A stretch of DNA of 61,905 nucleotides, counting the filler, from Stramenopiles sp. TOSAG23-6 (lineage: Eukaryota), in assembly GCA_900128565.1 (NCBI GenBank). It is 24 parts of 24 records of this genome, joined end to end, with 100 filler letters (N's around TTAATTAATTAA, not from the genome) between each part and the next. Parts side by side here need not be neighbours in the genome. Positions count along the whole stretch, not along the records: positions 28,537 to 31,021 come from LT638018.1; 23 more parts are not named here. One strand, 5' to 3'. The translations under genes were made by a program, and so were the position numbers. The notes under the pieces are model-generated. The model searched no databases. It saw only the letters and a list, made by a program, of their open reading frames with translations, and was not told where the DNA came from. This document shows positions 2,604-61,905 of this stretch, piece after piece; position 1 is the first letter of the stretch; each line of letters starts with the position of its first letter.

Positions 2604-2658
2604 TGTACCTAACAAATATTTTTAGATTTTTTTTTTGAAATATTTTTCCAAAATACAT

Positions 2659-5280: not shown

Positions 5281-5961
5281 GACAAACAATCTCCACTTCC
5301 AGCCGATGCAAGAATTGATCCTAACCAAGATACACTTCTGACAGTTCCATCGTGTCCAGCTAAAATGACGTCATTTTCTTTGCTCGATGTTAATTTCAAT
5401 TTTTCATTATTTCGTGTTTTTGTTGAATGTTTCAATTTTTCATTATTATCCGTAGGGTTAGGGTTAGGGTTTGGTACATCATTTGGATGTTCACTGACAC
5501 GAATGACACGTATCATTTTATCATTAGATGCAGATGCCACACACGTATTATCATTTGAAAAGTGTACTGAATATATACTATACACAATATTAAAAAAAAA
5601 AAAAATCTTTTTAGTTTAGGTACAAAATTTCTTAAAAAATTTCGTAAAAAAAAAAAAAAAAAAAAAAAAATGAAATTCATGATGAAAACATACAAACAGA
5701 TCCTAAATGATGATTCTCTCTTTCTAAAAGTATACTACCATCAAATGCATCACATATTGTTATTTTTTTTGAGTTTGTACCAAAAACAACGAATTTGCCA
5801 TTTCTTGAGTAAGACACAGATCTTCGATACTATACAACAATATTTTTTTTTTTTTAAATGTTTTTTGTTAGGTACGAAATTTACTACGAAAAAAAAAATG
5901 ATTTTTTTTTTTTTTTTTTTTAATTTTTTTTTTTAGGTACGAAATTTACTACGAAAAAAAA

Positions 5962-5997
<36 letters not shown>

Positions 5998-6482
5998 TTT
6001 TTGTTAGGTACGAAATTTACTACGAAAAAAAAAGTTGATTTTTTTTTTTTTTAAATTATTACATACATTGCTTGGGTGTCTTTTGCTAAAGTAAACTGTT
6101 CAAAATCACTCAAACACAATATATCAGAGTTTCCGATAGTAGATGAATTTTCATCTGAATGTAACGAACTGGAATTGTCCTAAAATGTGAAGAATAAATC
6201 CATATTTTTTTAGATTGAGAATTTTTTTTTACGAAAAAAAAAAAAAAAAAAAAAAAAAATTAAAAAAAAAAAAAAAANNNNNNNNNNNNNNNNNNNNNNN
6301 NNNNNNNNNNNNNNNNNNNNNNNNNNNNNNNNNNNNNNNNNNNNNNNNNNNNNNNNNNNNNNNNNNNNNNNNNNNNNNNNNNNNNNNNNNNNNNNNNNNN
6401 NNNNNNNNNNNNNNNNNNNNNNNNNNNNNNNNNNNNNNNNNNNNNNNNNNNNNNNNTTTTTTTTTTTATTTTAAGAAAAAAA

Positions 6483-7929: not shown

Positions 7930-8686
7930 ACAAACCAGATTTTCATGGGTGGATTAAACACAATGGTGATGCATAATACATGTGAAGATTCGTTATTGGC
8001 TGCTCCTTTGATTTTGGATTTGGTCATTTTAACTGAACTTATGGAACGTATTTCTGTTAAAACACAGTCAAATGGTGAATTTGAACGATTTCATCCTGTG
8101 TTGTCTATTTTATCATACCTTCTCAAGGCACCAATGTATGTTTTTTTTTTTTTTTGAAAAATCTTTTTTTTTCATACGAAATTTCGTACCTAACAATTTT
8201 TTTTTTTTTTCAAATATTTTTTTTAGTATAGGGTCGCTGAAAACACACCTGTTGTGAATGCATTATTTGCTCAACGTGAATCGATTGTGAATGTACTACG
8301 AGCATGTTCTGGTTTAAACCCTAATCATCACATGGGTTTGGAACATAAAGTGTACGTTTATATATTATGAATTTTAAATTTATTTATTTTTTTTTTGGTT
8401 TTCATACAAAATTTTGTACCTAACAAAAAAAATTAAATTTTTTTTTTTTTTTATTTTTTTATTTTTGTTTTCTTTCTAAAAAAAATGATACTATAATTAA
8501 TAATTAATAATGAGTAAATAATAACAAATTTTTTAAAATGACTATATTGTTTCATAATACAGGTCATGTGCTGGAACAAACATGTCTATGGCATGTGCTG
8601 CTGCAAAGAGTTCTTCTGTTATTTTCAAAAATAAGGAAAATAATTGTATGGTGAATTCGAGATCTTCTTCTGTTCCTATCTTGTAA
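7930..8686 (+). CDS. INO1: myo-inositol-1-phosphate synthase, 3' part; exons 7930-8135, 8232-8351, 8563-8686
   Basis: [39 protein letters not shown]. Confidence 0.95.
8136..8231 (+). other. Family intron with GT-AG ends
   Basis: GTATGT...ATACGAAATTTCGTACCTAAC...TTAGTATAG|; restores [14 protein letters not shown]. Confidence 0.9.
8352..8562 (+). other. Family intron with GT-AG ends
   Basis: GTACGT...TTGTACCTAAC...AATACAG|; leads in frame to the stop at 8686. Confidence 0.75.
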
Positions 8687-8984: not shown

Positions 8985-9339
8985 CTGAGTGAAATGGATT
9001 TGGCGATAGGTGGTTTTTATATTGATTCTAGTTGTTGTTGTTGTAAATACTGAGTGAAATGGATTTGGCGATAGGTGGTGTTTATATCTAATCATTAGAA
9101 TAACTATTTCTATATCATGTATGTTGTTTGTTTGTATCATGAATTTTTTAACATTATTGTTTTTTTTTTTTCATACAAAATTTTGTACCAAAACAATTTT
9201 TTTTTTTTGAGTATATACGGTTTTATCATTTTTTTTTCATACAAATTTTCCTACCTAACAATTGTTTTTAACCAATTTTAAATTTCTATTCTTTTTGATA
9301 ATACATGAACTGAGTGAAATGGATTTGGCGATAGGTGGT
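8985..9339. repeat. Three copies of a 30-bp sequence CTGAGTGAAATGGATTTGGCGATAGGTGGT
   Basis: Copies at 8985, 9050 and 9310. Confidence 0.85.
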
Positions 9340-10402: not shown

Positions 10403-11666
10403 GGTAACTGGATCTTCAAAATTATTTATATCTTGGTGGGTAACTGGATCTTCAAAATTATTATTTTCGTCATTACTTCTACATTCTGTCGAAACAAGTG
10501 CTACACTGGACTCCACTGAACTGATTTTTGTACCAGACATTTTTAATGTGTCTTGATCCGTAATATTTAGAGTGTTGGTTTCATAGGAATCATTTTCATT
10601 GAGAACATCAATTTCTTGAAAAGCAACTCGTTGCTCAAGCTCAGATAAAGCAGCATTTGAGTGAGCTAGTTGTTCTACTTGGCGGTTTAATAAAGCTTCC
10701 TTTGCTTTCAACTCGGCCTTCAAACGCGAATTTTCCTTTTCAGTTTCATGTGTAGTGAAAATTATTTTAAACTTGAAATTCGTTAGGTACAAAATTTGGT
10801 ACAAAACAATTTAGGTAAAAAAATTAATTTTGAAAACGTACATGCCTATCTGATTCCAACACCGAAAGAAATTTAGATTCTTTAGTAATATCGGTAAATA
10901 TTTTAGCTGTAGTGTTATTAGATTTACTCGAAACACTTTCAACAATGATGTCACTATTTAAAACAACATTTTGGTCAATTTGTAAAGCCGTTGCCAGATT
11001 AGATAAATTCATATCGCGAAATTGGTCCTGAGCAAGTGCACGATCCTGCTGTGTCACTGCTTCACCATCGAGCATTTCTAGGCGAAAAAGTCTCATTATT
11101 GCAAAGTTTCTCGCTTGCGGCAGTGTAGATATTTGGTTTGATGTCCAGCTAAAAGAGAGTAACTTTGTTAGTGTTGCCAAACTATTAAGGTCATTGAGAC
11201 AGGATAACTTATTATCATCGATACGAAAAACGGTCAAGTTTTTTAATTTTTCAAATGACGATGGTATTCTTTTGATGTAATTTTCTGATAAATCTAGAGC
11301 CTGAAGCAGCTGTAAATGAAAAATTCCAGTAATGGATGAGATTTGGTTCCCTGAAAGGTTCAGACGGAGGAGGTTGTGTAAAGACTCGAAGCCCTCTATA
11401 CATTTAATCATATTACCACCCAAATCTAAATCTTCTAGTGCACTCATGCTTGAAAGACCTTCAATTTTATAAAATTTTCCATGTGAACGGTGTTTGTAAC
11501 GAAGCGACAGTGTCTTTATCTTTTCAACACTGGGTGGACCATCTTTAGCGCCCACATTTTCTTTTTTTGAAGCAGCGGCAAAGTTTGCCAGTATAACGGG
11601 GGTTGTAATATAACGGACACAATCTTTTTTGAAATTTGACTTACACAATGTTGAATCTCTCGTCAT
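10403..11666 (-). CDS. SDS22-like leucine-rich-repeat plus coiled-coil protein (centriolin-like), 3' partial; intron 10748-10841
   Basis: LEDLDLGGNMI, LRLNLSGNQI and LEMLDG LRR cap, followed by coiled coil. Confidence 0.8.
10748..10841 (-). other. Non-canonical intron GT-AT
   Basis: CAT|GTACGT...TTGTACCTAAC...TACACAT|GAA joins two open frames (DRH|ETEK). Confidence 0.8.
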
Positions 11667-23428: not shown

Positions 23429-25760
23429 TTTTTCGCGAATGTAATCCACACGATTCAGGAGAGCAGTCTCAAATTTTACTCGGAGCGAAGATTTATCCCC
23501 ATTTTTTGATTCCAGTGCGTGTTCCATTATGTGGCGTTCCCGAAGTGCTGTGGAGTCTTCCATTGCTTTCATATCAAGGTCTGCTTTTTCTGCAATTGCT
23601 TCAAGTTCCATTTTTGAAATTTCTGATTGACAAGAAAAATAACTCTGCCATTCAAATTTCAAACGTTTCAGTGTATTTTGCTGCACAGTTTGAAGTTCAT
23701 TAGCATTGGCTCGTTTGGCAGCATTTTCTAGGGCTAGCATTTCTTTTGAATAGTTGACGCGAAGTGATTTCATTCCTTTGGCATATTTTTCATCAATGCC
23801 AATCAATGTTCTCAATTTATGCGCCTGCTCAATTTTCAATTGAAATTGAGTGGATATAAGCTTTACTTCTTCATTGCGGCATTCCTCAGTAAACAACGAT
23901 TTTTCCTTGAGTTTTCTCAGATTTTTGTATGCTTCTTGTTCCATTTTTTTTAATTTTGTCATATCTTTTAAAACCATCTCTTTAGACTCGGCTTCAACTC
24001 TCTTTAGCTCTTGCTCATTTGCATCTAACTTTGCCTCTTGTTTTGTAAATGCGTCTTTGATTTCACATAACTTTTCACCAGTAAGTTTCCCTATCCATAA
24101 GTTAGCTCGAGTCCTCATTTCCATTCTGGTTTGCTCTTCACTCTCTTTTTTATAATCTCTCTCATGACTTCGGAGTAATAATTCGTTCTCAAGTAGCATT
24201 TGGTACCAGTCACGCTGCAAAAGCTCATGCTCATAGACTGCGTATTTTTGTACCTCTAAAATATTCCGATGGATTGCTTCTCGTCTTTTTTTTATTTGCA
24301 TTTGAAAGAATTTTACTTTTGGGATGAAATTTGCTGATATTTTAGTACTCGCATCAGGGTTTTTCATTTCTGTTTTCAATCGAATAAGTTCATGGTCATT
24401 CTTAGCTTCTTCCGTAAACAAAGCATGTATTTTGGTATTAAATACAGCAACTTCATTTCGTTCGCGAGAAGTTATTTGTTTTTCACGAATCTTTTGTGCT
24501 TGTGCTGTAGAGTTCTTCTGTTTGAAAAATATATCTCGACGCAGACAATCAATTTTAGAGACTCGGCTACCCCATTTATTATCAACTTCATTTTGTAATG
24601 CTCTCATGTGCAGATTACCAATTCTGATCTCTTCATTTTGCACTTGAAGTTCAATTTCTTCAAGCTGGCGTTTATACTGAGTTTGTAACAATGATTTTTC
24701 TTCAAGTGCTAATTTTGCGATAGTCGAATTAGCACCACGTGCTAATTTCACCATAGTCGACTTTGGACTACCTTTCAAATCGCCGCTTTTATTTGTTGCA
24801 CTATTAAACTGTTCTACTTCTTCATCTATTTTGCTATGCGACTCTGTCAATTCTTTCTCGATAGTTGCGCAAATACCTTTATGATATTCAAAATTAGTTT
24901 TTGCAAGACTATCTAGCTTTGTTATCCATAATTCGTTGATGTTGCGTCTTAATTGTTGACCATATTTTTTACACTCTCGCTGTTTTGTTTCTAATTTAAT
25001 GTACAACGCCCAAAGATCATTTTCCCATTTCAATTGTGTCCGTTTTTTATCATCTTGAGCAGATCTACGGTCATCTAATAGTTTTCTTTCATATTGGTCT
25101 CTTTTTTCTATGATACTGTGACGCTCTTTTTCTAAAGTTAACCGTCGAGCTTCTGATTTTTGTATTGTATCAAAATGTCCAATATTTATATGTTCGATTT
25201 CTGGATTCGTAAATATACTTTGCATCCTAGAATCATGTGACATTTTCTTTTTCGAAACATTTTCTTTCTTTTCCGATACGAGCTCGTTGGCTTCTTTGGT
25301 ATCAAAGACACCAGCATCTGAAATTGCTTGATCGATAAGCTGCAGAGTATGTTTAAACTTCATACCTCCTTCTAAACCTTTATTAATGAGCTGATGTTCT
25401 AGCGACTCTAGTGCTGCAATTTTTTGATCATACTCAAGTGTTATGCGCTGTAGAGCTTTGGAAAAATCATCTTGAGAATCGCTACTTAGCTTATCAACTT
25501 TTGATGCAAAACCTTTCATGAAAACGACTTCCAAGTCCTTCATGTAATTGGTCCGTGTATTTTGGAAAAATATTTCATAAAAAAAATGTTAGGTACGAAA
25601 TTTCATACCAAAAAAATTAAAAAAAAAAAATTAGAAATTCATATAAAACATACGTGTCCTATATTCTTGTTCCAAAACATGCATTTCATGTTCTTCTAAT
25701 TTTCGTTCCCATCGATCGTGGAGCATCATTTTTTGTTGTTCTGCGCGCAGCTTTTGATCC
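23429..25760 (-). CDS. Long coiled-coil protein, internal exons 25760-25654 and 25554-23429
   Basis: E/K/Q-rich heptad composition; frame kept across family introns. Confidence 0.8.
25555..25653 (-). other. Non-canonical intron GT-AC
   Basis: ACAC|GTATGT...TTCGTACCTAAC...CCAAAATACAC|GG; phase 1 join gives CGG. Confidence 0.8.
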
Positions 25761-25850
25761 ATGTATTTTGGAAAAATATTTCAAAAAAAAACGTTAGGTA
25801 CAAAATTTCGTACGAAAATAAATTCGAAATTGAAAAAAAATAAAACATAC
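25761..25850 (-). other. Non-canonical intron GT-AT
   Basis: Full family consensus; starts exactly at the contig edge. Confidence 0.75.
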
Positions 25851-28112: not shown

Positions 28113-28380
28113 ATGTATTTTGAAAAAATATTTCGGAAAAAAAATCGTTAGGTACGAAATTTCGTACGAAAAAAAAACAATTTGAAAAAAAATTATTGTT
28201 TTGAAAAAATATAATGTTAGATATTTGTTGGATATGAAATTTTTCTACATGTCTGTTCCAAGAAAATGAACTATATACTTGTTGAAGAATACATTTGAAG
28301 AATTTCTTATAAAAAAATAAATTCGAAATTCACAATTAAAAAAAAAAATCATTAGGTACAAAATTTTAAAAATTTTGTCC

Positions 28381-28425
<45 letters not shown>

Positions 28426-28612
28426 TTTTTTTTGACNNNNNNNNNNNNNNNNNNNNNNNNNNNNNNNNNNNNNNNNNNNNTTAATTAATTAANNNNNNNN
28501 NNNNNNNNNNNNNNNNNNNNNNNNNNNNNNNNNNNNGATTTTTTTTTCGTACGAAATTTTGTACCTAACAAATTTAAGTTTTTTTTTTTTTAAATATTCT
28601 TCCAAAATACAT

Positions 28613-30936
28613 GCTGTTGATTCTTCTTCGAAACAACTTTGTGAAAATACAAAAAATACTTTTCCAATCCCTAAAAACTCCAACTCTAATCCTTCAACTA
28701 GTTCTTCGAAAACAACAGAGAAAGTATCATCATCAAAAATATCATCTGAAGGGAAACTACATGTATGTTTTATTTTTTTTTCAATTTTTTCAATTTCGAA
28801 TTTATTTTTTTATAAAAATTTTGTACCTAACAAATATTTTTTTTAAATAATTTTCCAAAATACATGTAGCAAATGGTGTTCATCAAAGTATTTTTCCTTT
28901 ACCACAAAATTCAACAGAAATATCTAAAACGTCATGTATAGTTGCATCACCTATTAAACCTATTGAAGCTCTCTCTAAAGATGACAACCATGAGGGAATG
29001 AGTAAAGATGACAACCATGAGGAAACGAGTAAAGATGACAACCATGAGGAAATGAGTACTATGAATAATGAAAAATTTCAAGTGAACACTGAAAATCGTA
29101 CTGAGAATCGGACTGAAAGGGCAGGTACATTTGATGATGAAATTAGGTCACTTCAAATTGCACCAAATGGATCTACTTTTACACCCCAACGGAAATTAAA
29201 GAGATCAACTCCGCCTGGAGATGCGGTCTTTGGAAATTTGCTCCTGAATACACCAAATGCAATTATGATGATGGATCCTTTCTTTACTAAAAGTGTTTGT
29301 AGTAGTATTTCACATGGTACTTCAACAGGTCGACCTCCACGGCCCGAAGCTTCAATACAAAAGTATAAAGATTCTGTCAATGGGAAATATATTCATAATA
29401 GTGTGACCAAATTAGAATCATCGGCACAAAAAAACGATGTAAAAGAAAAAGAGAACCAAAACAGCCATCAGTCACAAAGATGTAAAAATACTATTAATGT
29501 AAAACGCCGAGATCGTACTGACTCAGGACCAGGCAGGATGATACGTGTCGTTTCACGTTCTCCAATATCGGATGGGGGTAACACTGTGAGTGTAACCAAT
29601 GTATGTTTTATTTTTTTTCAAATTCGATGTTTTTTTTTATAGTAAATTTTGTACCTAACGTTTTTTTTTCAAATATTTTTCCAAAATACATCCGGCACAA
29701 AATGAAATTGAGTCCAGTAAAGTTTCATCTGTCGTACTTTTTCATTATGAATTTCATTTTGTTTTTGTTTTTGTTTTTGTTACGAAAATGTATACTTAAC
29801 GAGTTTTTTTAATATATTTTTCACAATACATGCGGCTTCCATCGCAAGCACTGAAAGTCTTCCTGTAGGTTCATTGGGAGCATCTGCACGTGATGGTTTG
29901 ATAATTTCGTCTTCTTTACTTAAATCGCGATCAAATGCGTCGTTGAAGAATGGCGACAACTCTTGTGTAGTTTCTCTCGTTCAGTGTATGGAAAAGAATA
30001 CAATATCAGCCATGTCTTCGAAAATATCTAAAACTACAACAAAATCCAATGGAAATGATATAGATAATAATAACAATAATATTAATGATAACGAAGTTGA
30101 AAAATCTAATTTTCTACAAGAAACAATGAATCCACCAGCAGTTTCTTCATCGCCAAAGTCTATTACTTCGAGTCACGAATTTGAAACAAATCCTCTACGG
30201 TTGAATCGGTCTTTATCGTTTAGCGATGCTGTTTCAAATCGGAGTCCACTAAGACGAACAAATAGACATTTGTCATTTAGTGAAGCGGCAGAGGTTGGTA
30301 ATAGTCCTCCAGTTGAAAGTTATGCTCGTCGTGCGGCGGAATTATGCACTTTAGATGACGTCACTGGTCTTTCCCACTCATTTAGTGAAGATCATACAGT
30401 AAGAAATAATGGTCGAGATAAAGAGCAATTAGTTCAATTGGGAGAAGTGATGAAAAGATTTCAACGTGAACAAGATTATGAATATGAGGAAACTAAAAAT
30501 AGTACAAGTAAATCAATCGATACAATTCCAAAAAATGAAAATAAAGAAGTCTTTAATGCCGATATTGAATGTAAATATAAAGATGGAATTATTTGTGATG
30601 ATAAAAGTAGTCTTGTTGAAAAACATATGAAACGTAATGATCTATACGATGAAAACAAGATGAATGCACGATCAGAAAATACAAATGTTTCGGATGACAG
30701 TGATCAAGATATTAATGATCCGTATGGTACGTTTTCATTATGAATTTCAAATTTATTTTTTTTTTGGTTTTCATACGAAATTTTATACCTAACAAATTTC
30801 GAATTTAATTTTTTTTACAATACATGTGGTGTTCGTCGAATAAGATGTGAGTTAGATGCATCTTTTGCATGCGCGGCATTGGAAAGCTCAACACCTCATG
30901 AAAAGTTGTCCAGACGTCCTGATCCCTCAAAATCAT
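28613..30936 (+). CDS. S/N/T-rich low-complexity protein; exons 28613-28762, 28866-29600, 29692-29733, 29832-30726, 30826-30936
   Basis: Removing four GT-AT introns gives one uninterrupted frame. Confidence 0.75.
28763..28865 (+). other. Non-canonical intron GT-AT
   Basis: TACAT|GTATGT...AAAATACAT|GTA; TACATGTA is present at both junctions. Confidence 0.8.
29601..29691 (+). other. Non-canonical intron GT-AT
   Basis: Family consensus, phase 0. Confidence 0.8.
29734..29831 (+). other. Non-canonical intron GT-AT
   Basis: GTACTT...TATACTTAAC...CAATACAT|, phase 0. Confidence 0.7.
30727..30825 (+). other. Non-canonical intron GT-AT
   Basis: GTACGT...TATACCTAAC...CAATACAT|, phase 1. Confidence 0.7.
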
Positions 30937-31220
30937 GTATGTTTTATTTTTTTTCAAATTCGATTTTTTTTTTATAAAAATTTTGTACCTAACGATTTTT
31001 TTTTTGAAATATTTTTCCAAANNNNNNNNNNNNNNNNNNNNNNNNNNNNNNNNNNNNNNNNNNNNTTAATTAATTAANNNNNNNNNNNNNNNNNNNNNNN
31101 NNNNNNNNNNNNNNNNNNNNNGGTGTTTTAAAAAAAAAATTTTTTTTTTTTTTTTTTTTTTGTAGTAAATTTTGTACCTAACAAAAAACAAAAAAAAAAA
31201 AATATTTTTGTACAACACAT

Positions 31221-32124: not shown

Positions 32125-33050
32125 ATGGTTATATCACAGAGTATTCTTGTTGTACTCTTTCTATTAACCCTAACCCTATTAGTCAGTGACAATGCAACGG
32201 CTAATGACGTCACTGAACCTGGTAGTTTGTTACCGTCTAATCTTCCCTCCGCACCAGCGAGTAATCATCCTCTATCAAACACATGTGGACATGGTATGCA
32301 ATGGAATGATTGTGGTTCTCCTTGTATTACTACATGTCATTATAAACCTGACTATAACGCTGATTCACAATGTGCAGCAACGGAATGCATCCCACGTTGT
32401 GAATGTCCAGTCGATCCAAATGCTTTACGAGAAGGTGACCGATTTGTCTGGGATAGAGTGCTTGGGTGTATGCCATGTACTGATTGTCCACCACGATTGC
32501 CATTAGTATCTGTAAAAAATAAAATGGTTGGTATAGATCCTATGAGCGATCCGAGAGACTGGGATATTAGTACAGTTAAATCTTGTATGTTTTTTCTTTT
32601 CAATTTCGAATTTATTTTTTTTTTTTGTAGGGAATTTTGTACCTAACAAATTTTACCAAAAAAAAAAAATTTAATATTTTCTCACAATATTTGGTTAAGT
32701 CAAGTTGTGAAAACAAATGGCGAAAAAGCTAGTGCTTATGCAAATTCTATTTTAGGTGTGTATACTGGTAAAGTATTGTATAAATTTACACGAACTGAAA
32801 TGTACGTTACACCTAACCCTAACCCTAATTCAAAACATTCAAAAAATTGTGAAATTAAAAATATTATAAAAAAAAAAAATTCAAAATATCAAACCTAACA
32901 AAAAATGTTTTTTTTATTATTTTTACAAAATACATGAATGTTTTACTTGAACGAGAAGATCCATTAGAAGGACAACACATTTTTGATATATTACATGATG
33001 TAATCTGTCCTTTTCACTGCTCTTGTGATTATTATGTTGAAACATTTTAA
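32125..33050 (+). CDS. Secreted protein with TIL (trypsin-inhibitor-like Cys-rich) domain and SAM-like C-terminus; exons 32125-32584, 32693-32801, 32936-33050
   Basis: Signal peptide; WNDCGSPCITTC..C..CIPRCECP..GC...DC; spliced PRDWDISTVKSWL..YTGKVL. Confidence 0.7.
32585..32692 (+). other. Non-canonical intron GT-TT
   Basis: TCTT|GTATGT...TTGTACCTAAC...CACAATATTT|GG; restores W in W..STV..WL. Confidence 0.7.
32802..32935 (+). other. Non-canonical intron GT-AT
   Basis: AT|GTACGT...ACCTAAC...AAAATACAT|G. Confidence 0.75.
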
Positions 33051-33874: not shown

Positions 33875-34424
33875 GTTTAAAAAAGAAACAACGTCAAGTT
33901 TTCCAGGAAAATATGGAATTAAAAGATGAACAGGAGCGACTTGAAGGGGAAGTGAAACGCTTGAAAAAAAAACTGTTTAACCCTAACCCTAATGACATAT
34001 GTTTTATTTTTTTTTTCACAAAAAATCGAATGTTTTTTTTTCGTACGAAATTTTGTACCTAACAAAAAAAATTTTAAAGAAAATTTTGAAATATTTTTCC
34101 AAAATACACGTTGCTACAAAAAAAGGCGTAGAAGGTATAAAATGGTTATCAAAATGTGCAAATGCAGGTAATAGTGAAGCTCAATACGAATTGGGTGATC
34201 GTTTTTTTGAAGGTGATGGTATTGAGGAAGATAAACAAGAAGCTATCAAATGGTATCGTCAATCGGCAACTGGAGGAAATCGAGAAGCACAATTCTGGCT
34301 AGGTAAATGTTATTGTTTAGGTGATGGTGTTGATGAAGACGAACAAGAAGCTATTAAGTGGTTGACTGAAGCTGCTAATGCTGGCCATCCGGACGCACAA
34401 GAAATGCTTGATGAAGAATTTTAA
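33875..34424 (+). CDS. Sel1-repeat protein, last exons 33875-33996 and 34110-34424
   Basis: AQYELGDRFFEGDGIEEDKQEAIKWYRQSA repeats. Confidence 0.85.
33997..34109 (+). other. Family intron with AT-AC termini
   Basis: GAC|ATATGTTTTATTTT...GTACGAAATTTTGTACCTAAC...CCAAAATACAC|GTT, phase 0 in frame. Confidence 0.7.
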
Positions 34425-36081: not shown

Positions 36082-36350
36082 ATGTATTTTGTAAAAATAT
36101 TTCAAAATTTTTTTTTTTTTTTTTGGTAAAAAAAAATTTTTAGGTAAAAAATTTCGTACGAAAAAAAAAAAAAAAAAAAAAANNNNNNNNNNNNNNNNNN
36201 NNNNNNNNNNNNNNNNNNNNNNNNNNTTAATTAATTAANNNNNNNNNNNNNNNNNNNNNNNNNNNNNNNNNNNNNNNNNNNNACAGATATTGTTGTTTGT
36301 TTGTACTACTTGTTGAAGTTTGAAATTTTGAAATTTTTGAAATTAAAAAA

Positions 36351-37413: not shown

Positions 37414-38761
37414 ATGGTAAGAGATAAATGTTTTGGTCTCTCCTGTGATACTGTATTTGCGTACAATACATCCAAAACCGTTGTAATAAGAGACCGCCGT
37501 GTTGGATGTCTCAGAATTTTTTTCCTGGCAGTAATTTTTATTTACATTGTCGTGTTTAAGATTCTGTATCAAAACGGTGGCTACACTTATGAACCACCAG
37601 TAGGCACAATACGCTTTGAGCTTCGTGCACCAGTTGTTGATAATTGTAATCCATACAAAGCAAACTGTGATAATAATTTTCTTCCTTTGACTAAATTACC
37701 ATACTGTTTGCAAAATCAAGAAAAGCGTCCAATTCCTGGGCAAAACGCTACGTTAGACAATTTCAACTGTGCCTATCTGGATTCGTTAGAAGCTGGTAAA
37801 GATGATTCTTTCTCCGTATATTTGACCACTTTCTTGAAAAGGTATACCCAAACACGAATGTGTAGCAATATTATATTGCAATCTAAAGTACCATCGAATA
37901 CAACTTCTTGTACACAAATGTTTAAAACGACAGCAACAGACCAGTATTTTGTTACACAACCTGAAAAATTTACGTTATTATTAGATCATAGTGCAACTGC
38001 ACCATTATTAGGAATAACTAGTATTGGACGTACCACAAATGGACGTCTAAAAATAAAAGAAGGAAATGATCAATTGTGTCTACATCCACCAAAAGGTCAT
38101 GTCGCATATAAATATGCTCTTGGGGAAGAAAATAGTCCTACAAAAGCACCATGTATCTTTTTATTGTAATCCGTAATACTTTTTTTTTTTTTGGTTTTCA
38201 TACGAAATTTTGTACCTAAAGAAAAAAAATTAATTTTTTTTTTTTTTGAACTTTTATATTTTTTACAATGTATGTTATATTGAGCCAGTACATCCGCCGT
38301 ATCCAAATAACCATTTAGATGTATTTTCAATTGAAACATTACTCTCAGCTGCAGGGCTTGGCTTGGATACTGTGGCATATCAAACAGGGAACAAACCTGA
38401 TAGTGTACGAAAACGTGGAGGTATAGTTATGTACATTTTCATTATGAATATTGTACCAATTTTGAAATTATTTTTTTTTTTTTTTTTNTAAAAAAATTTT
38501 NTACCTAAANAAAAANAAAAAAAAAAAAAAAAATTACAGTGTCAATATACGATATTCATTATTTAAATAATCATTAATCATCATTTAAATCATCATTTAA
38601 ATGATTATTAAATAATTTCAAATTTTTGTAAAATATATATATATATATCCACAATACATTGTGTCCATATCATATGAAAATACACTACCATGGATGCAAA
38701 CAACAACGCCATTTTATACTTATGAATTATCTACTTTACCACATACTGAATTTAAAACACA
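37414..38761 (+). CDS. P2X purinoreceptor-like cation channel, 3' partial; exons 37414-38152, 38274-38430, 38660-end
   Basis: FAYNTSK (YxTxK) + VIRDRRVG + TM1; FTLLLDHS; spliced R.RGGIVIVSISYEN. Confidence 0.85.
38153..38273 (+). other. Non-canonical intron GT-AT
   Basis: AT|GTATCT...TTGTACCTAAA...CAATGTAT|GT; KAPCYIEP. Confidence 0.75.
38431..38659 (+). other. Non-canonical intron GT-AT
   Basis: AT|GTACAT...CCACAATACAT|T; restores GGIVIVSISYEN. Confidence 0.75.
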
Positions 38762-41340: not shown

Positions 41341-41526
41341 NNNNNNNNNNNNNNNNNNNNNNNNNNNNNNNNNNNNNNNNNNNNTTAATTAATTAANNNN
41401 NNNNNNNNNNNNNNNNNNNNNNNNNNNNNNNNNNNNNNNNTTTTATTTTTTTTCAAATTCGATTTTTTTTTTTATAAAAATTTTGTACCTAACAAATGTT
41501 TTTTCAAATATTTTTCCATAATACAT

Positions 41527-42625
41527 TAAACGTTGCAAAGCAATCTGCAATACAGCATTCAATGAAGAATCTAAGAAACATGGATTCAGAATACCCAGAA
41601 AAAGACGCTTGCTACTCACAGGATGAAGAAATGGAATGCACAAATAATATAAAAATTCAATTAATTGAAGCTGGAATTGATCTCCACAAGTTTGACCCAA
41701 CCGTAACAAAACCTATTATTCCAAAAAATGACTCTGAAATACTTGTTGGATTTGTTGGAAGACTTGTAGAACAAAAACGACCGTTAGAATTTGTTAAAAT
41801 GGCTTCTGTAATACAGCAACGTTTGAATACTGTTTTCAATATTAATAGTAGTAAAGAATATACTTTAAAACAAATTTGCCATAGTATAGAAAATGTTCAA
41901 ACTAAAGATAATGAAAAAATATCCCAGAATTACCCCACAAAGAGTATATCCAAATATATTCGATTTATTATGGTTGGTTCAGGAGGTGCGTCAACTTCCA
42001 TTGTAAACTTGGCCAAATCGTTGGGAGTGAATATTGAATTTTTTGATTCAACAGAACATGTACCACAAGTACTATCATCTTTAGATATGTGCGTTTTCAT
42101 CATTTTAATTTCAAAATTTGAATTATAATTTTTTTTTCGGACCTAATTCAAATCCGATATTTTTTTATATCTAACAAATTTCAAACTTTTAAATATATGT
42201 TTTCGCTTTACATTTTTATCCATCTATCAGTTTGGGACACTGCGGCGTATGTACGTTTCATTTTTTTTCAATTTCTAATTTATTTTTCGTACGGAATTTT
42301 GTACCTAACGTTTTTTTTGAAATATTTTTCCAAACTACATGCTGTGCGCGAGGCAATGGCAATGAAACTTCCTGTAGTTGCTCTTAGTACAAATTTAGGA
42401 GTTTCTGATTATGTTGAACACGAAAAATCTGGATTACTAGTAAATTCTCTCAATGAAGAAGAAGTTGCTTCAGCTGTGCTAAAATTAGTTTGTAATAAAA
42501 AAAAACGAGAAGAATTTGGATATAACGGAAGATTAGTCATTGAGAACATTGCGCCAATTGATAGATTTGTAGATGAACACGCCGCTTTATACGTCAAATT
42601 GTGGCGAAATCGTACACGTACGTAA
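41527..42625 (+). CDS. GT-B (GT4-like) glycosyltransferase, 3' part; exons 41527-42088, 42214-42250, 42341-42625
   Basis: GFVGRLVEQK, spliced DIFIHLSVWDTAAYAVREAMAMKLPVVA, SGLLV. Confidence 0.88.
42089..42213 (+). other. Non-canonical intron GT-AT
   Basis: AT|GTGCGT...ATCTAAC...TTTACAT|T; restores LDIFIHLS. Confidence 0.75.
42251..42340 (+). other. Non-canonical intron GT-AT
   Basis: TAT|GTACGT...GTACGGAATTTTGTACCTAAC...CAAACTACAT|GCT; retention would insert 30 aa into the GT4 signature. Confidence 0.8.
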
Positions 42626-46595: not shown

Positions 46596-48915
46596 AAATA
46601 TACAATAAAAATGATACGAATGTAATAAAACTAAATTGTGGTGAAATTCGGCCTAGTACCGCATTAATACATATAAACGCAAACACAGCGAGAACGAGTT
46701 GTGTAGCCTGTTTTTTGGAAAAATATTTTCTACGTTTGAAATTTGTTAGGTACAAAATTTCGTATGAAAAAAATAAATGACATCTATGATGAAAACGTAC
46801 ATGTAATATTTTACACACCGATCCAGCAACAGCAAATGTTGATAGAAAATGAAAGAAAATATTGTTTCCTACAACAATTCTTCCAAATTCATCTTCTACA
46901 CATTGATCAGCAAATAGCCCGTAACTTTGAAGACTGCTCCAAAGTATGATTACATCTAATAGTAAGACCATTATTAAATCCATTTGAAATAATTTCAAGG
47001 TCAAAGTCATCACTCGGCGTTCTATTTTTTGTCTATTCAAGAAAAATTCACGTCTTTTGATTTCTAATGCCTTTTTCGCTTGTTCTTCTCTCTGTTGAGA
47101 TAGAATTGCAGCATGTCGCCGATCTTCAGATTCTATAAATTCTCTATGACGTAATTGTTTCTTCCTACATTCTTTTTCCCATGCTCTAGCTTTTTTCTCC
47201 GCATGTAATCTTTTTGCTTCAGCATCTGCAAACCATTTTTGTCTATCATCTTTTCTTAATTCACTTGCACGACGATTTATCTCACGCTGGGTTCTTTCCC
47301 ACTGAACGCGATCGGTTCGTTGCGTCACTAAAAGTTTCTTCATCTCTATATCATGAGCTAGCATTCGATCAAATACTACTTTACGTGCTTCAGCTTCGTC
47401 AACACCTAATTGGGCAGCACGGGCGACCATTACCTCCACATCAGTTGGAGTCGCATTTGTGGAAATAATAGGCTTACTATTAAGATTGTCCTTACCCGTA
47501 TGAATAATTTCCGTTTGTGGATTTTCACTGTCATAATCACCTAATAACAAAGGTCGTTTTTTTTCACCATTGCAAATATTTTCTAAAGGGTTGACATTAT
47601 GTAACTTCGTTTGAGCATCAATCAATTGTTTTTCTTCAGTTTTTACTGTGTGTCGATCTAAACATTCCTGTAACGATAGTAATGTAGACATTCCTTTTTT
47701 AACTGAGGGTAAATGAGCAAATCCAGATTCATATGCAGCTTCAACAGCAACTTTTAGAACCGGTGCAATTAATACAAATTGTGCAATATCAGAAGTATCT
47801 GGAATATCATTATCTAATTCTTCATTTGTATACTGTATCTTGGATAAAGCAGCCTCACAGTCTTTAGATACGATATCACCAACTCGTAATTGACTACAAA
47901 TTTTCGTCGTTGTTTCATCAATTTCTTCGTGAAATTTCAGCATAAATTCTAATATTGCATTTGCTGTATGTGTATTATGTTCTATATATGCCGCACGGTG
48001 AAGTGCAAGTCTAAGTGAATTTCGTAAATGACTCAACTTTGTGAATTCATTTTTGATACTTTCTGATATTTTCAATAGATTTGAAGTGAGATAAACTTTG
48101 CGGCCAACAACACTTCCTTTTCTATATGATTTCAATGAATATGAAAAATCAGATAAAGCTTCTGTAAGATATCCAACAGTGTCAATAAGTTCTGTAAATG
48201 TTTTAGCACCCAAAGGAAGACATATATGCTCAGTAGTATACGTCGTATTGGGCTCTTCTCTTGACTCTTTTGACTCCTTTGACTCATTTACATCTGAGCA
48301 GGATGAATGGGACTTTACATGACATACGGAATCAGTCATCTTCCGAATTTTCATTATATCCAACACTACAGCTTCTAACTTCTTCACAATCATTGGTGAT
48401 TCTACAGTTGTCGACGAAGAGGAAACTGCGATATTCGATTGACTTGTATCTAGAGATAACGTAGAACTGGCATCCAAAGTCAGCCCAAAACTAGAACAGA
48501 CAGTCTGTTCCGTCAGATTAGGATCAGATAATATTTGACAAATTTGGCGAATAGTTACCTTCAAGTCACCGAGTACACTGCATCGATGTAATTCGGCAGC
48601 GTTCATAGAGGTTGTTGCGAGTCCAGTTTTAACCATCCAAACAAAAGTAAGCACTAAACTACAAAACATACCTACTATAACAACGTACTGATTCCACGTT
48701 TCGAAAGATATGGCTTTCATTTTTGATGGAATAGACTCTATGGTGGATAGCAGATTAGAAGCTTTCTGTCGTAACGGGACGGGAGCTCGCTCGTGGGCGT
48801 CCTCAGAGAAAATATCGAAAAAGTCGTCTTCGAGCTCAAAAACATCAAAATCCTGAACGGCGTAAACGTGACTAAACACCACCATAAAAATTAGCAAATG
48901 TGAAAAGAAACTCAT
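46596..48915 (-). CDS. Signal-peptide, membrane and coiled-coil hypothetical protein, 3' partial; intron 46708-46800
   Basis: Long ORF, hydrophobic N-terminus, TM segments. Confidence 0.75.
46708..46800 (-). other. Family intron with GT-AG ends (93 nt, in frame)
   Basis: CAT|GTACGT...ATACGAAATTTTGTACCTAAC...CCAAAAAACAG|GCT. Confidence 0.8.
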
Positions 48916-49219: not shown

Positions 49220-49921
49220 CAGTTGCTCGCCTAATAATTTAATCCTTTGATGATTTTCTAATAATCTTGTTTTTATCGTATTTACATTATTTCGTGTTTT
49301 TTCAAAATGTCCACGTCGATCATTTGTAATCATTTGAATACCTTTTTCCTTATATAAATCTTGACAAATGGATAAAAAAACACGAAAAGTAATGTTTTTT
49401 TTTTTCGTACCAAAATCTGTACCTAAGGAATATTTTTTCACATTTGGATTTTTTTCAATTTCATGTTTTTGAAATATTTCTAAACGGTTTAAAGCATCAA
49501 TAAGTTCATTATAAGTTAATGTACCTGTAAAATCAACATCAGTCAGTGTAAATAAATCATGTAATTCTCGAACTGTTTTACAATACATTTCATTTTTTTT
49601 ATTATTTTTATTATTTTTCGTGTTTTTTGTGTTTTTTGTATTGTCCAATGAAATTTCATCCATAACTTGAGACAATGCATTGATACATTGTTCGAGATCA
49701 ACATATTGTCCATCATTGTATGCTAGTATATTAATAATTCTATTTCTTTGATGTTGACTAAAGAAAGTCTTTAATGAAGGATCTTGTAATACACTCGAAA
49801 TCATTTGAGTTGGAATTTCGTCTGGATCAATTTGACTTTTTTGAATAATTTGTTGGAAGATGTTTGATACTTTTTCTGCCATATTTATCTTTGATGATTT
49901 TGGATCTATGCCTGTTGCCAT
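49220..49921 (-). CDS. EF-hand protein, first exon (3' boundary approximate)
   Basis: LHDLFTLTDVDFTGTLTYNEL...ITFRVFL. Confidence 0.65.
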
Positions 49922-50364: not shown

Positions 50365-51515
50365 ATGAGTTCTATGAAGAGTCTAATTCAACGAAATGTG
50401 AGCGGTCTTGTCTTTCTCATTGGTGTTCTTTGTTATTCAAACATTTTCCCAGGTGAGTTCATATACGATGATTTCAAGGCCGTGTTACAAAACCCCGATA
50501 CAACGGGTCAACGTCCCTTTATGGAACTCTTTAAGCACGACTTTTGGGGGGAACGAATCGATTCTTTATACAGTCACAAGTCATGGAGACCTCTGACAAT
50601 TATTACATATAGACTTCAATATATGCTACATGGAGCTTCAGCAGCACCGTATCGAGCAGGTAATGTGCTATTACATGGTATTTGTTCAACACTAGTCGTT
50701 TGTATTTGTCAGAATGTTTTATTTATGCCCTTTCACAAAACGTTTGCTGCAGGAATTTTATTTGCTTTACACGTTCGTTTGTACTAGATTGATTTTTTTT
50801 GAAAATTTTTTTTGAAATTTTTTTTGAAATTTTTTTGAAAATTTTTTTTCGTACGAAATTCCGTACCTAACAATTTTTTTTTTTTTTTTTGAAATATTTT
50901 CCTACAACACATCCAATTCATACTGAAAGTGTTAATTGTATTGTCGGACGAGCTGAGTTATTATCAGCAATGTTTGCATTATTTTCACTATTATCTTATG
51001 CCAAAGGCGTCATTTTACTACGAAAGATTGCAAATCAAAATCAATATTTTAAAACTAACCCTAACCCTAAACAGAACAATGAAAAATACACGAAATATGA
51101 AAAATACACGAAATACGAAACATGGAAAAGTTTTTTTTTTATTTTTTTAACTTTTGTATTATCATTTTTATCAATGATTTCAAAAGAGCAGGGTATAACA
51201 ATTTTAGGTGTTTGTGGATTATTTGATATGTTTTATTCAACATCACGAGCAGGTTTGTTGTATGATATTTTTTATTTTTTGAAACATTTGATAAAAATAT
51301 TTCAAAAAAAAACAAAAAAAAAAATTGAAAAAAAAAAAATTGAAAAAAAAATCGAATTTGAAAGAAAACAATTTTCATTGTTTGTGATTCGTGGCATTAT
51401 TTTATTTATAGGCTTACTATGCATTTTATCATTTCGCTGGTGTGTCATGGGTGGACGTCCACCATCTACACGTGTTTTTTCAAATTTTGATAATCCTGCC
51501 GCTCATACACAAAAT
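50365..51515 (+). CDS. TMTC: TMTC-family protein O-mannosyltransferase, 5' part; exons 50365-50772 and 50913-51515
   Basis: FIYDD, DFWG, SHKSWRPL, spliced LFALHPIHTESV..IVGRAELL, SKEQGIT, FDNPAA. Confidence 0.92.
50773..50912 (+). other. Non-canonical intron GT-AT
   Basis: CAC|GTTCGT...CGTACCTAAC...ACAACACAT|CCA; the first downstream AG is out of frame and would delete PIHTE. Confidence 0.88.
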
Positions 51516-51793
51516 GTATGTTTTTTTTTTTTTGATTTTTTTTTTTTTGAATTTTTTTTTTTTGAATTTTTTTTTTTTGAATTTTTTTTTTTAGATTTTT
51601 TAGATTTTTTTGATTTTTTTACTTTTTTTGATTTTTTTNNNNNNNNNNNNNNNNNNNNNNNNNNNNNNNNNNNNNNNNNNNNTTAATTAATTAANNNNNN
51701 NNNNNNNNNNNNNNNNNNNNNNNNNNNNNNNNNNNNNNTCGTACGAAATTTTGTACCTAACAAATTTCGAATTTAATTTTTTTTACAATACAT

Positions 51794-53932
51794 GTCTGGT
51801 TGAGAACATTTCAAAACCAAATAAACTTACTAGAATATCAACGGACCATCTCTGTGTCCTTTGGTGTGCGCAAGTATTAAAACCAATTACTCAGGGTCTT
51901 TTAGAACTCACGAAATTACGGAAAAAAAATAAAAATAAAAAAAATGTAAAAAGGAATGAAATATCTGCAAAAGATGGGTCGAAAACGTTTCAAAAATATA
52001 TGGTTCGTAGTTATGTATGTTTTATTTTTTTTCAAATTCGAATTTTTTTTTTTATAAAAATTTTGTACCTAACGATTTTTTTTTAAATATTTTTCCAAAA
52101 TACATTCGCCTTCAAATATTGTGCTTGAAAATAATGTAGTGTTGAAAGGATTTGATACAAAGGTGAGGAATGTCGATTTAAATTCTGGTTTTGGAGCTTT
52201 CGTTGTACGTTTTCAAAATTGAAGTTTTACATTTTTGTTCATACGAAATTTTGTACCTAACAAATATTTTTACACCAAAAAACAAATATTTTTTCACAAT
52301 ACTGAGTGATTGGTTGCGTTATAATGTTGAATCTATTATGGCGATGCTTGTTGTTATACCTCTTCTTGTATTTGTACATTTGATACCATTATTACGAGAA
52401 TCTAAATGGCGTGGAGCAACGTCGAAGAATCGCGTCAAGGGTGCATTAGTTATTAGAGGTCTTCGTTATGGTGCTGATGCAGGTATATGGTTGTTACTCT
52501 CCCCGGCGTCTCATTTACCTTTGCATGCCTTATATTTGTTTTTGAGCAAAATGACAAAGAAATCTGAATTTAATCATTTAATGACAACTATTTTAGTATC
52601 CATTGGTGTCTACACGGGTTTACACTCCTCGAGTGATTTTTGTCCTGTTTTAATTCTACCAGCTGTTCAATGGGTCCTTTGGTCTATGAATGAAGTAAAG
52701 GGATGTATTACTCAAATGGGAATGCGTTTATTCAGTATGCTGTCGATTCCTACAATATATGATTTCGTGTCACTTTTAGCATCTTATTTCGTGGCATTAT
52801 CTATTTTGGTTGCATTAGCCTGTGCACTAGAAATGTTTCATCAGTACATTGGAATTCGTATACATAAAATTGTACTTAAATTGGCGAATTATTCAATTGT
52901 CTCGAAAATATCAAAGGTATCTATGACATACTGGAGTTTACTAGTAATTGTTACGTTTTATGTAGCGATACATGTACGTTTTCAAAATTGAATTTGTTTT
53001 ACGTAAATTTTTTTTTCAAGTATATTATGTACCTAACGATTTTTTTACAAAAAAAAAACAATTTACAATACATATACGAATGGTGAAGCCTGCTATTGAG
53101 TATAGAAGTATTACTCTATTGAGAGAGATTTCTTGTCTTTTTATTCTTGTCTTTATCGTTCATCTTATATCTTTGGTATTAATAATTGTATACCCTTGCA
53201 TGTCAGACAATGCAAAAAGAATCTATCAACAAATAACTCTCATGCTGTATTTACCTAGTCTACCTATTTGGATGGGAAGTGTTATTCATATTTCTTCCAT
53301 TATGTTGGGCCCTGCAGGTGCAGATACATCTGGATCGTTTAACACTGTTATTTTATCATTGTTTTTCATCAGTGTTTCAAGTATGCATACCGTCTCCGTC
53401 ATGTATGTTGCGTTTACTACAAAATTGTATACCTAAGACTTTTTCTACTACATTTTTTTTACCTTTTTTTTTTTTACAATGAAAAATTTTACCTAACAAA
53501 TTTCGAAATGTAAAAACATATTTTTTCACAGTATATGCGTTTTACATTACCAGATGCAGATTTGGATGACAGTGAGAGTCTTGAATCATCGAGCAACCCT
53601 AACCCTAATTTATCAAAGTATAGAAATCCAAACAATTCTAGAAATAATAATCGATATTTAAATAAATATGATTTGAAAAGAGGTGAAAATACGAATTGCG
53701 AAAAGTGTCTATGTGTACGTTTCTAAAATTGAATTTCGAATTTACTTTTTGTTACTATGAAATATTTGTACCTAACGATTTCTTTTACGAAAAAAACAAA
53801 ATATTTTTCACCATGCATCCTTATGCTGAGTATGAAGCTATAGCACCAAATTCATGTGGTAAAACTCGAATTCATCGCTTTAAAGATGGAGAAGAAATAG
53901 TTCTAGGTCCTTCATTTCGTGTCGTTTGGTGT
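51794..53932 (+). CDS. Multi-pass membrane protein; exons 51794-52014, 52106-52204, 52305-52973, 53074-53402, 53537-53714, 53819-53932
   Basis: Five family introns (four GT-AT, one GT-TG) join six exons into one frame. Confidence 0.75.
52205..52304 (+). other. Non-canonical intron, probably GT-TG
   Basis: GTT|GTACGT...CACAATACTG|AGT; the adjacent AG is out of frame. Confidence 0.6.
53403..53536 (+). other. Non-canonical intron GT-AT skipping a CAG
   Basis: AT|GTATGT...TTCACAGTATAT|G; using the CAG leads to a premature TAA. Confidence 0.7.
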
Positions 53933-59340: not shown

Positions 59341-59540
59341 NNNNNNNNNNNNNNNNNNNNNNNNNNNNNNNNNNNNNNNNNNNNTTAATTAATTAANNNN
59401 NNNNNNNNNNNNNNNNNNNNNNNNNNNNNNNNNNNNNNNNTTTTCCTAAAAATTTTTTTTTTTTTTTTTTGGTAGAAAATTTTGTACCTAACGATTTTTT
59501 TTACTAAAAACAGAAAAAAAAAATATTCTTTCACAAAATA

Positions 59541-61821: not shown

Positions 61822-61905
61822 GTACGTTTTTATTATGAATTTCAAATTTATTTTTTTTTTTTTTGGTAAAAAAATTTTGTACCTAACAAATTTTTTTAGA
61901 TTTTT

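Follow-up and report, generated by a model that had tools for sequence, protein, structure and literature searches.

A repeat family of short GT-AT introns, probably of introner type, in contigs of Stramenopiles sp. TOSAG23-6

The stretch of DNA considered here (the window) comprises 61,905 bases from Stramenopiles sp. TOSAG23-6 (GCA_900128565.1) and is made up of 24 unlinked contigs, sorted by falling size from 2,503 down to 2,465 bases and joined by linkers of the form N44-TTAATTAATTAA-N44 (e.g. 2504-2603, 28437-28536). Its GC content is ~31% and its eukaryotic open reading frames (ORFs) include those for DENN, EF-hand/C2/WW, WD40, LRR, Tcp10_C, P2X and PPR proteins, an enoyl-CoA hydratase, an HMG-CoA lyase and a glycosyltransferase of family 1. 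The HMG-CoA lyase ORF (55032-56160) is 97% identical to the public protein P0001 across the aligned parts and, judging from the name of the source of this match, the organism is probably a MAST-3-type uncultured marine stramenopile; the stretch is also present in seawater metagenomes. The subject of this account is a family of introns of ~100 nucleotides (nt) that lie in these genes, begin with GT and mostly end with AT rather than AG. As the contigs are unlinked, the genes that host these introns are unrelated in the literal sense, and all counts of the family are drawn from 59.5 kb of a fragmented assembly.

The family element can be written as GTAYGTTTT…TACCTAAC…CMAAWAC-AT and has ~50 occurrences in the window (Table 1). 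The reference copy at 28763-28865 reads ...CTACAT^GTATGTTTTATTTT...TTTGTACCTAAC...TTTTCCAAAATACAT^GTAGCA (^ marks a splice junction), with each copy having the same conserved blocks: a 5' splice site GTAYGTTTT, a branch-point-like TTTGTACCTAAC, a T-rich tract and a 3' terminal block ...TTTTTCMAAWAC, the branch-like block lying 32-58 nt from the 3' end (median 38, 37 copies). The 15-mer TTGTACCTAACAAAT, allowing up to 2 mismatches, has 33 matches when 0.53 are expected and the maximum over 100 shuffles is 3, whilst the 3' block CCAAAATACAT with up to 1 mismatch has 26 matches against 3.0 expected. An iterated nhmmer profile at E<=1e-3 yields 50 copies or parts of copies, distributed across 20 of the 24 contigs at ~1 per 1.2 kb, two of the 50 being one copy counted in both of the duplicated contigs 15 and 16. 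These two contigs (36283-38761 and 38862-41340) have 0 differences across 2,479 bases, single Ns included, and are the same contig recorded twice. A looser motif scan gave 289 sites that were mostly spurious and was dropped.

It had been claimed in the initial annotation that GT...AT introns of several genes can be aligned end to end, and those at 28763, 29601, 30937, 52015, 61312 and 25761 do align fully. The likeness of the copies is thus real, although to call them near-identical was somewhat generous as even the best pairwise identities are 0.87-0.94 (aligned columns only), with the copies at 28763-28865 and 52015 being 93% identical. Could such likeness arise in ordinary old introns that were never mobile, simply from long, strict and lineage-specific splice signals? 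Conservation is indeed strongest at the 5' site, the branch, the T-tract and the 3' end, yet the likeness extends over parts that have no signal role. Exact stretches of 30-49 nt are common to copies on different contigs, among them a 49-nt stretch (...CAATTTTGAATTTATTTTTCGTACGAAATTTTGTACCTAAC) in the copies at 12999-13073 and 54307-54371 and a 32-nt stretch, TACCTAACAAATTTCGAATTTAATTTTTTTTA, extending out of the branch block into the next spacer, in the copies at 51739-51793 and 30727-30825. The alignment also resolves subfamilies with linked diagnostic variants that span several blocks, and at least 16 contig ends are located within a copy, as expected if the assembler broke off at a high-copy repeat.

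The depth of metagenomic coverage adds to this. Contigs from the DNA runs X1, X3 and X4 that align to contig 12, on which the reference copy lies, number 6,734, 5,551 and 1,999 respectively; its unique exons have a depth of 27-32 (X1), 6-8 (X3) and ~4 (X4), whereas the bins over its introns have a summed depth of 3e5-1e6, 1e4-4e4 and 3e3-1.5e4. Summed depth is not equal to copy number and is used here for its order of magnitude only, from which the genome-wide copy number appears to be in the thousands. Because of the shared stretches without signal role, the linked variants, the contig breaks within copies and this excess of depth over introns, the family is a repeat family and not merely a set of strict splice signals, and an origin as ordinary old introns is highly improbable, all the more so as it has no place for the covariation of exon and intron ends described below. 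A search of a collection of metagenome contigs with an exact 19-mer core gave 3 contigs only, of 38-44% GC and alike in the core only, and these were set aside as chance matches.

In most copies a small palindrome stands directly before the branch block, for example TTTCGTACGAAA at 61347-61362, or TTTTTATAAAAA, TTTCATACGAAA and TTTATAGTAAA elsewhere. Read off the alignment, its outer T/A pairs are conserved and its centre is variable. It may represent a small hairpin or a site for a protein. The long intron at 5831-6066 on the minus strand has three tandem branch modules (...CGTAGTAAATTTCGTACCTAA...) spaced by long A runs.

The boundaries of the introns were examined by a junction test, in which the longest open frames on both sides should join after exact removal of GTAYGT...XY, one in three being expected to fit by chance. 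Of 25 curated copies with both ends within a contig, 22 have their best open frames brought together by such removal, which supports the proposal of the initial annotation that excision together with one copy of the flanking dinucleotide restores the ORF. The other three are the copy at 61312, where the frame is unreadable (N at 61303), that at 9119, where the coding flanks are weak, and a misfit at 60815-60913. For the reference copy the flanking frames of 225 and 240 nt join only after removal of exactly those 103 nt, and use of the AG at 28869 as the 3' site leads to a stop codon.

Conserved enzymes allow the boundaries to be set more closely. Scored with a profile built from 119 homologues, the HMG-CoA lyase product from which 55907-56004 is removed as GT..AT reaches 480.1 bits, against 479.1 with both cuts two bases to the left, 469.4-474.8 with shifts of +/-3, 428.7 unspliced and 421.1 for the nearest GT..AG; the junction reads ATEDLV^YMLDGMGIETGV where relatives read ATEELVYMLNGMGIRTNV and ATEDVVYMLHGLGIETGV. 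The glycosyltransferase without 42089-42213 and 42251-42340 reads ...LDI^FIHLSVWDTAAY^AVREAMAMKLPVV, which is gap-free against the environmental homologue LDIFLHLSVWDTAAYGVREAMAMRLPIV, and this model scores 161.3 bits versus 148.5-156.8 for 12 variants in which one end was moved by 3 or 6 bases. At all three junctions it is thus the removal of GT...AT that fits homologues best, and without a gap. No usable AG is apparent in any of the three introns, and 3' ends based on AG fail at both junctions checked, one by score and one by gapless alignment.

A consequence can be seen in the public HMG-CoA lyase protein, which is without GVTVID...LVYML, a stretch that a GT-AG model must skip around the intron at 55907, and is without a second coding stretch too. 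A GT-AG model has apparently been forced around a GT-AT intron in this case, and large-scale damage to the public gene models of the organism is probable.

The last two bases of the intron are AT in 20 of 28 copies, AC in 2, AG in 2, TA in 2 (both uncertain by one base), TT in 1 and TG in 1, so that the AG of canonical U2-type introns is found in only 2/28. One copy, at 33997-34109, starts with AT and ends with AC. The 3' cut keeps a fixed position with respect to the terminal block ...TTTTTCMAAWAC, irrespective of the two bases at the intron end, and its distance to the branch-like block varies. Judged from sequence, these copies represent introns in which a canonical 5' site and a branch-like motif go with a non-AG 3' end. 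In the segment that separates the branch block from the 3' end, AG occurs 11 times against 20.9 in shuffles (P=0.005), yet it is found there in 11/37 copies, and AG seems still to matter in these introns without being required. It is tempting to go further and propose that nearly the whole intron complement is one introner family and that the spliceosome cuts two bases past ...AYAC at any XY, no longer reading AG, although we hold this tentatively and at rather less than even odds. At 60807-60915 a GT eight bases 5' of the element start and an AG two bases past the element end seem to make a canonical GT-AG rescue of the copy that otherwise misfits.

Exact removal might in principle take place in the DNA, as with the internal eliminated sequences of ciliates, the copies being short, AT-rich, interrupting coding sequence and having flanking direct repeats of 2 base pairs (bp) and tiny inverted ends. 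Such sequences are absent from somatic DNA and bounded by TA; here the DNA contigs of X1, X3 and X4, two independent metagenomes among them, hold the elements in place, the flanking repeat is AT and not TA, and a canonical 5' splice site and branch-like block are present. No joint that skips exactly one element is found among the 15 of 468 joints listed and, to our knowledge, nothing suggests nuclear dualism in this stramenopile group. Excision from DNA is therefore barely credible.

The exon end and the intron end also covary. The last two bases of the upstream exon equal the last two of the intron in 16/25 curated copies, when 11.8 would be expected from shuffling intron ends among introns (P=0.005); with three further copies there are 17/28 matches versus 12.5 expected (P=0.004), and in a strict set with five doubtful copies dropped 14/23 versus 10.0 (P=0.007). 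Upstream exons end in AT in 17/28. The initial annotation had counted 19 matches in 31 introns and 18 exons ending in AT, and whilst these figures are altered by the recount the pattern holds, as does covariation beyond what independent AT preferences at the two sites give. Three of the matches, the informative ones, are not AT (TT/TT at 32585, AC/AC at 33997 and AC/AC at 25653; P=0.002). Neither the exon positions -3 and -4 nor a comparison of intron start with second-exon start shows an excess of matches, so a longer duplication is unsupported. The match rate also varies with the type of copy, being 11/13 for GTATG and 4/10 for GTACG copies (Fisher P=0.039). Covariation of this kind would be expected from, and so supports, a 2-bp target-site duplication that flanks the element, one copy of which would be removed with the intron.

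The ends of the element itself are less telling. The termini GTAT(G)TTTT and AAAATAC can pair over 4+3 bases, the 5' terminus having an additional G, so the inverted termini that had been described are present but short. It was also suggested that pairing of the ends is itself a splicing signal. In such a scheme GUAUGUUUU and AAAAUAC would set the cut sites and leave a 2-nt overhang, in resemblance to the nonconventional introns of euglenids or the introners of Amoebophrya. The 3' cut does lie at a constant distance from the terminal block regardless of the last two bases, and one weak centroid of the six copies folded (42251-42340, -1.9 kcal/mol) brings the ends together, the final two bases remaining unpaired. 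However, the ends pair in 0/6 minimum-energy RNA folds, the energies are no lower than those of shuffles (z = 0.20, 0.41, -1.14, -1.60, -1.95 and 0.32, thus from -1.95 to +0.41), and in copies of the GTACG type the T4-A pair is lost and nothing at the 3' end compensates for it. The stable end pairing of hairpin-defined introns, as in euglenids and Amoebophrya, was not found in the six copies folded, and we give pairing as the determinant of the cut sites very little credence.

As to the family being a miniature inverted-repeat transposable element (MITE), the inverted repeat is ~7 bases with a 5' half that is the splice-site consensus, and no related autonomous element was found in the 59.5 kb; the data establish neither an inverted repeat of the MITE type nor a signal that depends on pairing. 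A Harbinger/PIF-type DDE_Tnp_4 ORF (21165-22427, +, E=3.7e-9), intron-less and with AT-rich flanks, stands alone on contig 9. This transposase was considered as the partner of the family and ruled out, there being no common termini.

How would introns with these properties come about? An element that carries its own 5' site, branch block, T-tract and 3' block would enter a gene as DNA, at a 2-bp staggered target that is mostly AT, and would duplicate that target. The spliceosome would then cut ahead of the G of the element and two bases beyond its terminal ...AC, and the RNA would shed the element with one target copy, restoring the reading frame exactly. As the target would supply the last two intron bases, the 3' site would be mostly AT and would follow the target when this is AC or TT. 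The insertion step could be the work of a transposase or of some other staggered nuclease. A DNA-transposon mechanism is probable for the family, and the full account, that of an abundant introner-type family of ~100 nt which enters DNA at a duplicated 2-bp staggered target and is spliced out with one copy of it, seems to us somewhat better than an even bet.

A number of observations weigh against this account. The covariation depends on three non-AT matches among 25-28 introns, 11/28 copies have no dinucleotide match, and in six of nine listed non-matching copies the intron ends in AT but the exon does not. On average, matching copies (~0.73) and non-matching copies (~0.72, hand average of per-copy means) are equally similar to the family, which lends no support to the simple idea that it is young copies that match. 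The inverted termini have a 5' half that is the 5' splice-site consensus itself, and there is no related autonomous element in the 59.5 kb, the Harbinger-like ORF having neither a profile match nor termini in common with the introns. Nearly all copies are sense to local ORFs, and no clearly intergenic copy was identified among those in the window. Presence/absence polymorphism, for which a check had been proposed, was not seen, all four introns of contig 12 being present in the independent 2024 metagenome X3, whose contigs extend into or across each of them. Exact removal from the transcript is seen in silico, in the 22/25 frame joins and three gap-free junctions, whereas the RNA run X5 gives no spliced joint at contig 12 among the 15 of 468 joints listed, all of which are repeat-derived. 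That run covers a single exon, 30296-30716, with its contig ending ahead of the intron at 30727, and it is uninformative on splicing because intron-like contigs are over-represented there as much as in the DNA runs.

Several of these points would suit a spread at the RNA level, by reverse splicing, reverse transcription and recombination, or some other route without duplication, in which the AT preferences at the two sites are separate traits of splicing in this lineage and MAT^GT...CAT^G stands for MAG^GT...YAG^G. Almost all copies are sense and within or just 5' of coding sequence, with every copy that passes the junction test running sense to its host gene; the exon context (C/A)AT^G resembles the common protosplice site, T standing where G would be, the inverted termini are minimal, no transposase partner was found and 11/28 copies are without a dinucleotide repeat. 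Intron ends inherited from a parent copy should not track the exon however, and yet there are the TT/TT and the two AC/AC matches. There is also one degenerate antisense copy (49389-49485, E=2.4e-7) within an open minus-strand ORF, beside an EF-hand-like loop, where it seems to be translated in frame (exonised). An antisense copy in an ORF is explained more easily by DNA insertion than by reverse splicing, and RNA-level spread is on the whole unlikely. With regard to the antisense or intergenic copies that were to be sought, it is thus a single antisense copy that was found.

Three copies end 15-31 nt ahead of a likely start codon (31204-31240, 25725-25761 (-) and 28095-28113 (-)), and two of these three leaders have AACAACAAAAAATG in common. 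These copies look like introns of the 5' untranslated region (5'-UTR), and such introns may be common in the family. The relatives of the glycosyltransferase (41529-42622) also bear on placement: among the environmental proteins P0122-P0139, a cluster of 11 has ORFs of 192-284 residues that are uninterrupted at both intron sites, although their contigs could be DNA or RNA assemblies. One member of 84 residues diverges after ...QQKQPL, where the gene in the window has no intron, which hints that intron positions differ between relatives of this gene.

Whatever the origin of the introns, their removal might be the task of a transformed and expanded minor (U12-like) spliceosome. Introns of the U12 type have a 5' site RTATCCTT(T) and a branch TCCTTAAC close to the 3' end. 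The present family is conserved at the 5' site through +9, with GTAYGTTTT to be set against RTATCCTTT, its branch block TACCTAAC is similar to TCCTTAAC, its 3' ends are varied (AT, AC, TT, TG, TA, AG) and one copy is of the form ATATGTTTT...AC. Positions +5/+6 are GT, however, and not CC, and the branch block is at 32-58 nt from the 3' end rather than at the short U12 distance, and such a spliceosome is improbable here. An Rfam scan of the window gave 0 matches, hence there is no small nuclear RNA gene to compare with the motifs. In its favour, extracts of a survey preprint place GT-AT and AT-AT among the rare termini of minor introns, and the same extracts report that the stramenopile Blastocystis has hundreds of minor introns that are AT-AC-rich and phase-0-rich (10.1101/2022.09.24.509304).

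Introners are a known kind of intron, and it is the combination of a textbook 5' site and branch block, a 3' end that would come from a 2-bp duplication and the GT...AT signature that is apparently new. Transposon-derived introner elements have reportedly been described by Huff et al. (2016) in Micromonas pusilla and Aureococcus anophagefferens. The present family is like these in its short similar introns, apparently thousands of them in unrelated genes of a marine picoeukaryote with a strong sense bias, and in that the element would bring one splice site and the duplication the other, the element and one duplication copy being removed and the frame restored. It is unlike them in that the duplication spans 2 bp as against 3 bp in M. 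pusilla, the 3' site is a non-AG AT as opposed to canonical termini, the inverted termini are ~7 bases and the family is known from DNA sequence. Extracts of two articles describe introner families in which one splice site comes from the element and the other from the duplication (PMC9860276), and a 3-nt target duplication for the introners of Micromonas (PMC11282704).

For the tunicate Fritillaria borealis, the subject of Henriet et al. (2019), extracts of the literature describe MITE-derived AG-AC and AG-AT introns whose 3' end comes from a duplicated exonic TAC (PMC11282704, PMC13326754). As far as those extracts go, the non-AG 3' dinucleotide, AC or AT, is there likewise made from a duplicated exonic target and the host spliceosome tolerates non-AG ends; unlike in our family the 5' ends are non-canonical and the boundaries very diverse, whereas the present copies combine a GTAYGT of textbook form with a branch block like that of yeast, and one family apparently supplies nearly all introns seen. 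The introners of Amoebophrya have, in the parts of the article available, inverted repeats of 8-20 nt that form hairpins and direct repeats of 3-5 nt, with no dinucleotide prevailing (PMC7789003). Taken on those parts, they share with the present family that they are repeated non-canonical introns of a marine protist with direct repeats across junctions and inverted ends, and differ in that ours lack stable end pairing, repeat 2 nt across the junctions and are clearly marked by GT...AT.

The fungal introner-like elements of van der Burgt et al. (2012) are said to be canonical GT-AG introns with no reported flanking duplication and stable predicted folds. Like these our copies are short introns, near-identical in the fungal case, with all their own splice signals and no coding capacity; unlike what is said of them they have GT-AT ends, a 2-bp flanking repeat and shuffle-like folding energies. 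An expanded set of U12-type introns is also said to have been found in Physarum by Larue et al. (2021), and the likeness to U12-type introns lies in the extended conservation of the 5' site and of the branch block, the several 3' dinucleotides tolerated and the AT-AC variant, the difference in the GT instead of CC at +5/+6 and in the branch block at 32-58 nt. No description of a GT-AT family was found in the main texts, in so far as available, of stramenopile genomics or of large introner surveys, whose supplements may bear on this. The available main text of two large introner surveys makes no mention of 'MAST' or 'stramenopil', and in that of one genomics paper on the group the word 'intron' stands twice, with neither splice sites nor repeats, whilst in that of another it is absent.

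If nearly all introns of the lineage do belong to this one family and AG is no longer read, a mobile element would have redefined the 3' splice site across the lineage, unnoticed so far because gene predictors force GT-AG. Introners are the best current explanation of bursts of intron gain, and to these the family would add a 5' site and branch from the element with a non-AG 3' end from the target, and would force or exploit a change in how the spliceosome chooses its 3' site. Such a link between the insertion chemistry of transposons and the rules of splice sites would be directly testable with existing ocean metatranscriptomes. The predicted proteomes of the group, which are part of marine eukaryote reference sets, may also be systematically damaged. 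Table 1 gives the copies on which this account is based.

Table 1. Parts of the reference intron and copies of the family in the window (^ marks the upstream exon-intron junction; positions are those of the window)
Feature	Position	Strand	Basis
Reference intron, 103 nt, GT...AT, phase 0	28763..28865	+	open-frame join
Exon-end AT, proposed first target-duplication copy	28761..28762	+	
5' splice-site block GTATGTTTT (consensus GTAYGTTTT)	28763..28771	+	alignment
Branch-point-like block TACCTAAC inside conserved TTTGTACCTAAC	28824..28831	+	
3' terminal block CCAAAATAC, end is reverse complement of GTATTTT	28855..28863	+	
Intron-end AT, proposed second target-duplication copy, non-AG 3' splice site	28864..28865	+	
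Copy AT^GT...AT	29601..29691	+	junction test, alignment
Copy TC^GT...AT, GTACTT type, after 42-nt exon	29734..29831	+	junction test
Copy TG^GT...AT, GTACG type	30727..30825	+	ph1/lead2, 240/147 nt open
5' part, truncated by contig end	30937..31021	+	profile
3' part, contig start	28537..28612	+	profile
Copy TT^GT...TT	32585..32692	+	sole 3' position fitting frame and consensus alignment
AT-AC copy AC^ATATGTTTT...ACAC, joins coiled-coil part to Sel1 repeats	33997..34109	+	240/240 nt open; junction in linker of Sel1 gene, frame checked, exact residue not placed
Copy AC^GT...AC	25555..25653	-	junction test
Whole copy at contig end, 3' end 31 nt ahead of ATG, probably 5'-UTR intron	25761..25850	-	profile
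Diverged copy GTGCGT...TTACAT, glycosyltransferase	42089..42213	+	LDI^FIH gap-free vs homologues
Copy GTACG...CTACAT, glycosyltransferase	42251..42340	+	AAY^AVREAMA gap-free; 161.3 bits
Copy GT...ATAT, HMG-CoA lyase	55907..56004	+	homologue profile scores
Copy AT^GT...AT	52015..52105	+	junction test, alignment
Copy TT^GT...TG; AG two bases further is out of frame	52205..52304	+	junction test
Copy AT^GT...AT	52974..53073	+	junction test
Copy AT^GT...AT, two branch-like blocks	53403..53536	+	junction test
Copy GT^GT...GCAT	53715..53818	+	junction test
Copy AC^GTTCG...AT, expanded T/A-rich 5' half	50773..50912	+	junction test
Copy AT^GT...AT	60437..60525	+	junction test
Copy with GT..AT frame misfit; fits as GT...AG at 60807-60915	60815..60913	+	junction test
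Copy GT^GT...GCAT	61083..61175	+	junction test
Copy AT^GT...AT; upstream frame unreadable (N at 61303)	61312..61417	+	alignment
Copy AT^GTACTT...CCAT	61548..61653	+	junction test
5' part at window end	61822..61905	+	profile
AG-ended copy (ATAG)	8136..8231	+	junction test
188-nt copy, inner part duplicated, weak coding support	9119..9306	+	
Copy GTATCT...GTAT after P2X-like exon; identical copy 40732-40852 in duplicated contig	38153..38273	+	
Copy AT^GT...AT	10748..10841	-	junction test
Copy ending ACAG	46708..46800	-	junction test
Long copy, 3' end ...ATA^G (GT..TA, or TA..AG shifted by one), uncertain boundaries	5831..6066	-	
Copy, 3' end ...ATA^G, boundaries +/- one base	5579..5693	-	
3' part at contig start, directly 5' of DENN-domain exon	2604..2658	+	
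3' part at contig end	5063..5104	-	
5' part at contig end	12999..13073	-	
5' part at contig end	23364..23428	-	
5' part at contig end	54307..54371	-	
Copy ending 15 nt ahead of WD40 ORF ATG; 5' end uncertain	28113..28219	-	
3' part ending 17 nt ahead of ATG	31122..31220	+	
3' part at contig end	36082..36182	-	
3' part at contig start, ahead of glycosyltransferase exon	41441..41526	+	
3' part	51739..51793	+	profile
3' part ending ATAG, end set by alignment only	59441..59536	+	
3' part at contig start	7806..7929	+	
Degenerate copy, antisense within minus-strand ORF	49389..49485	+	E=2.4e-7

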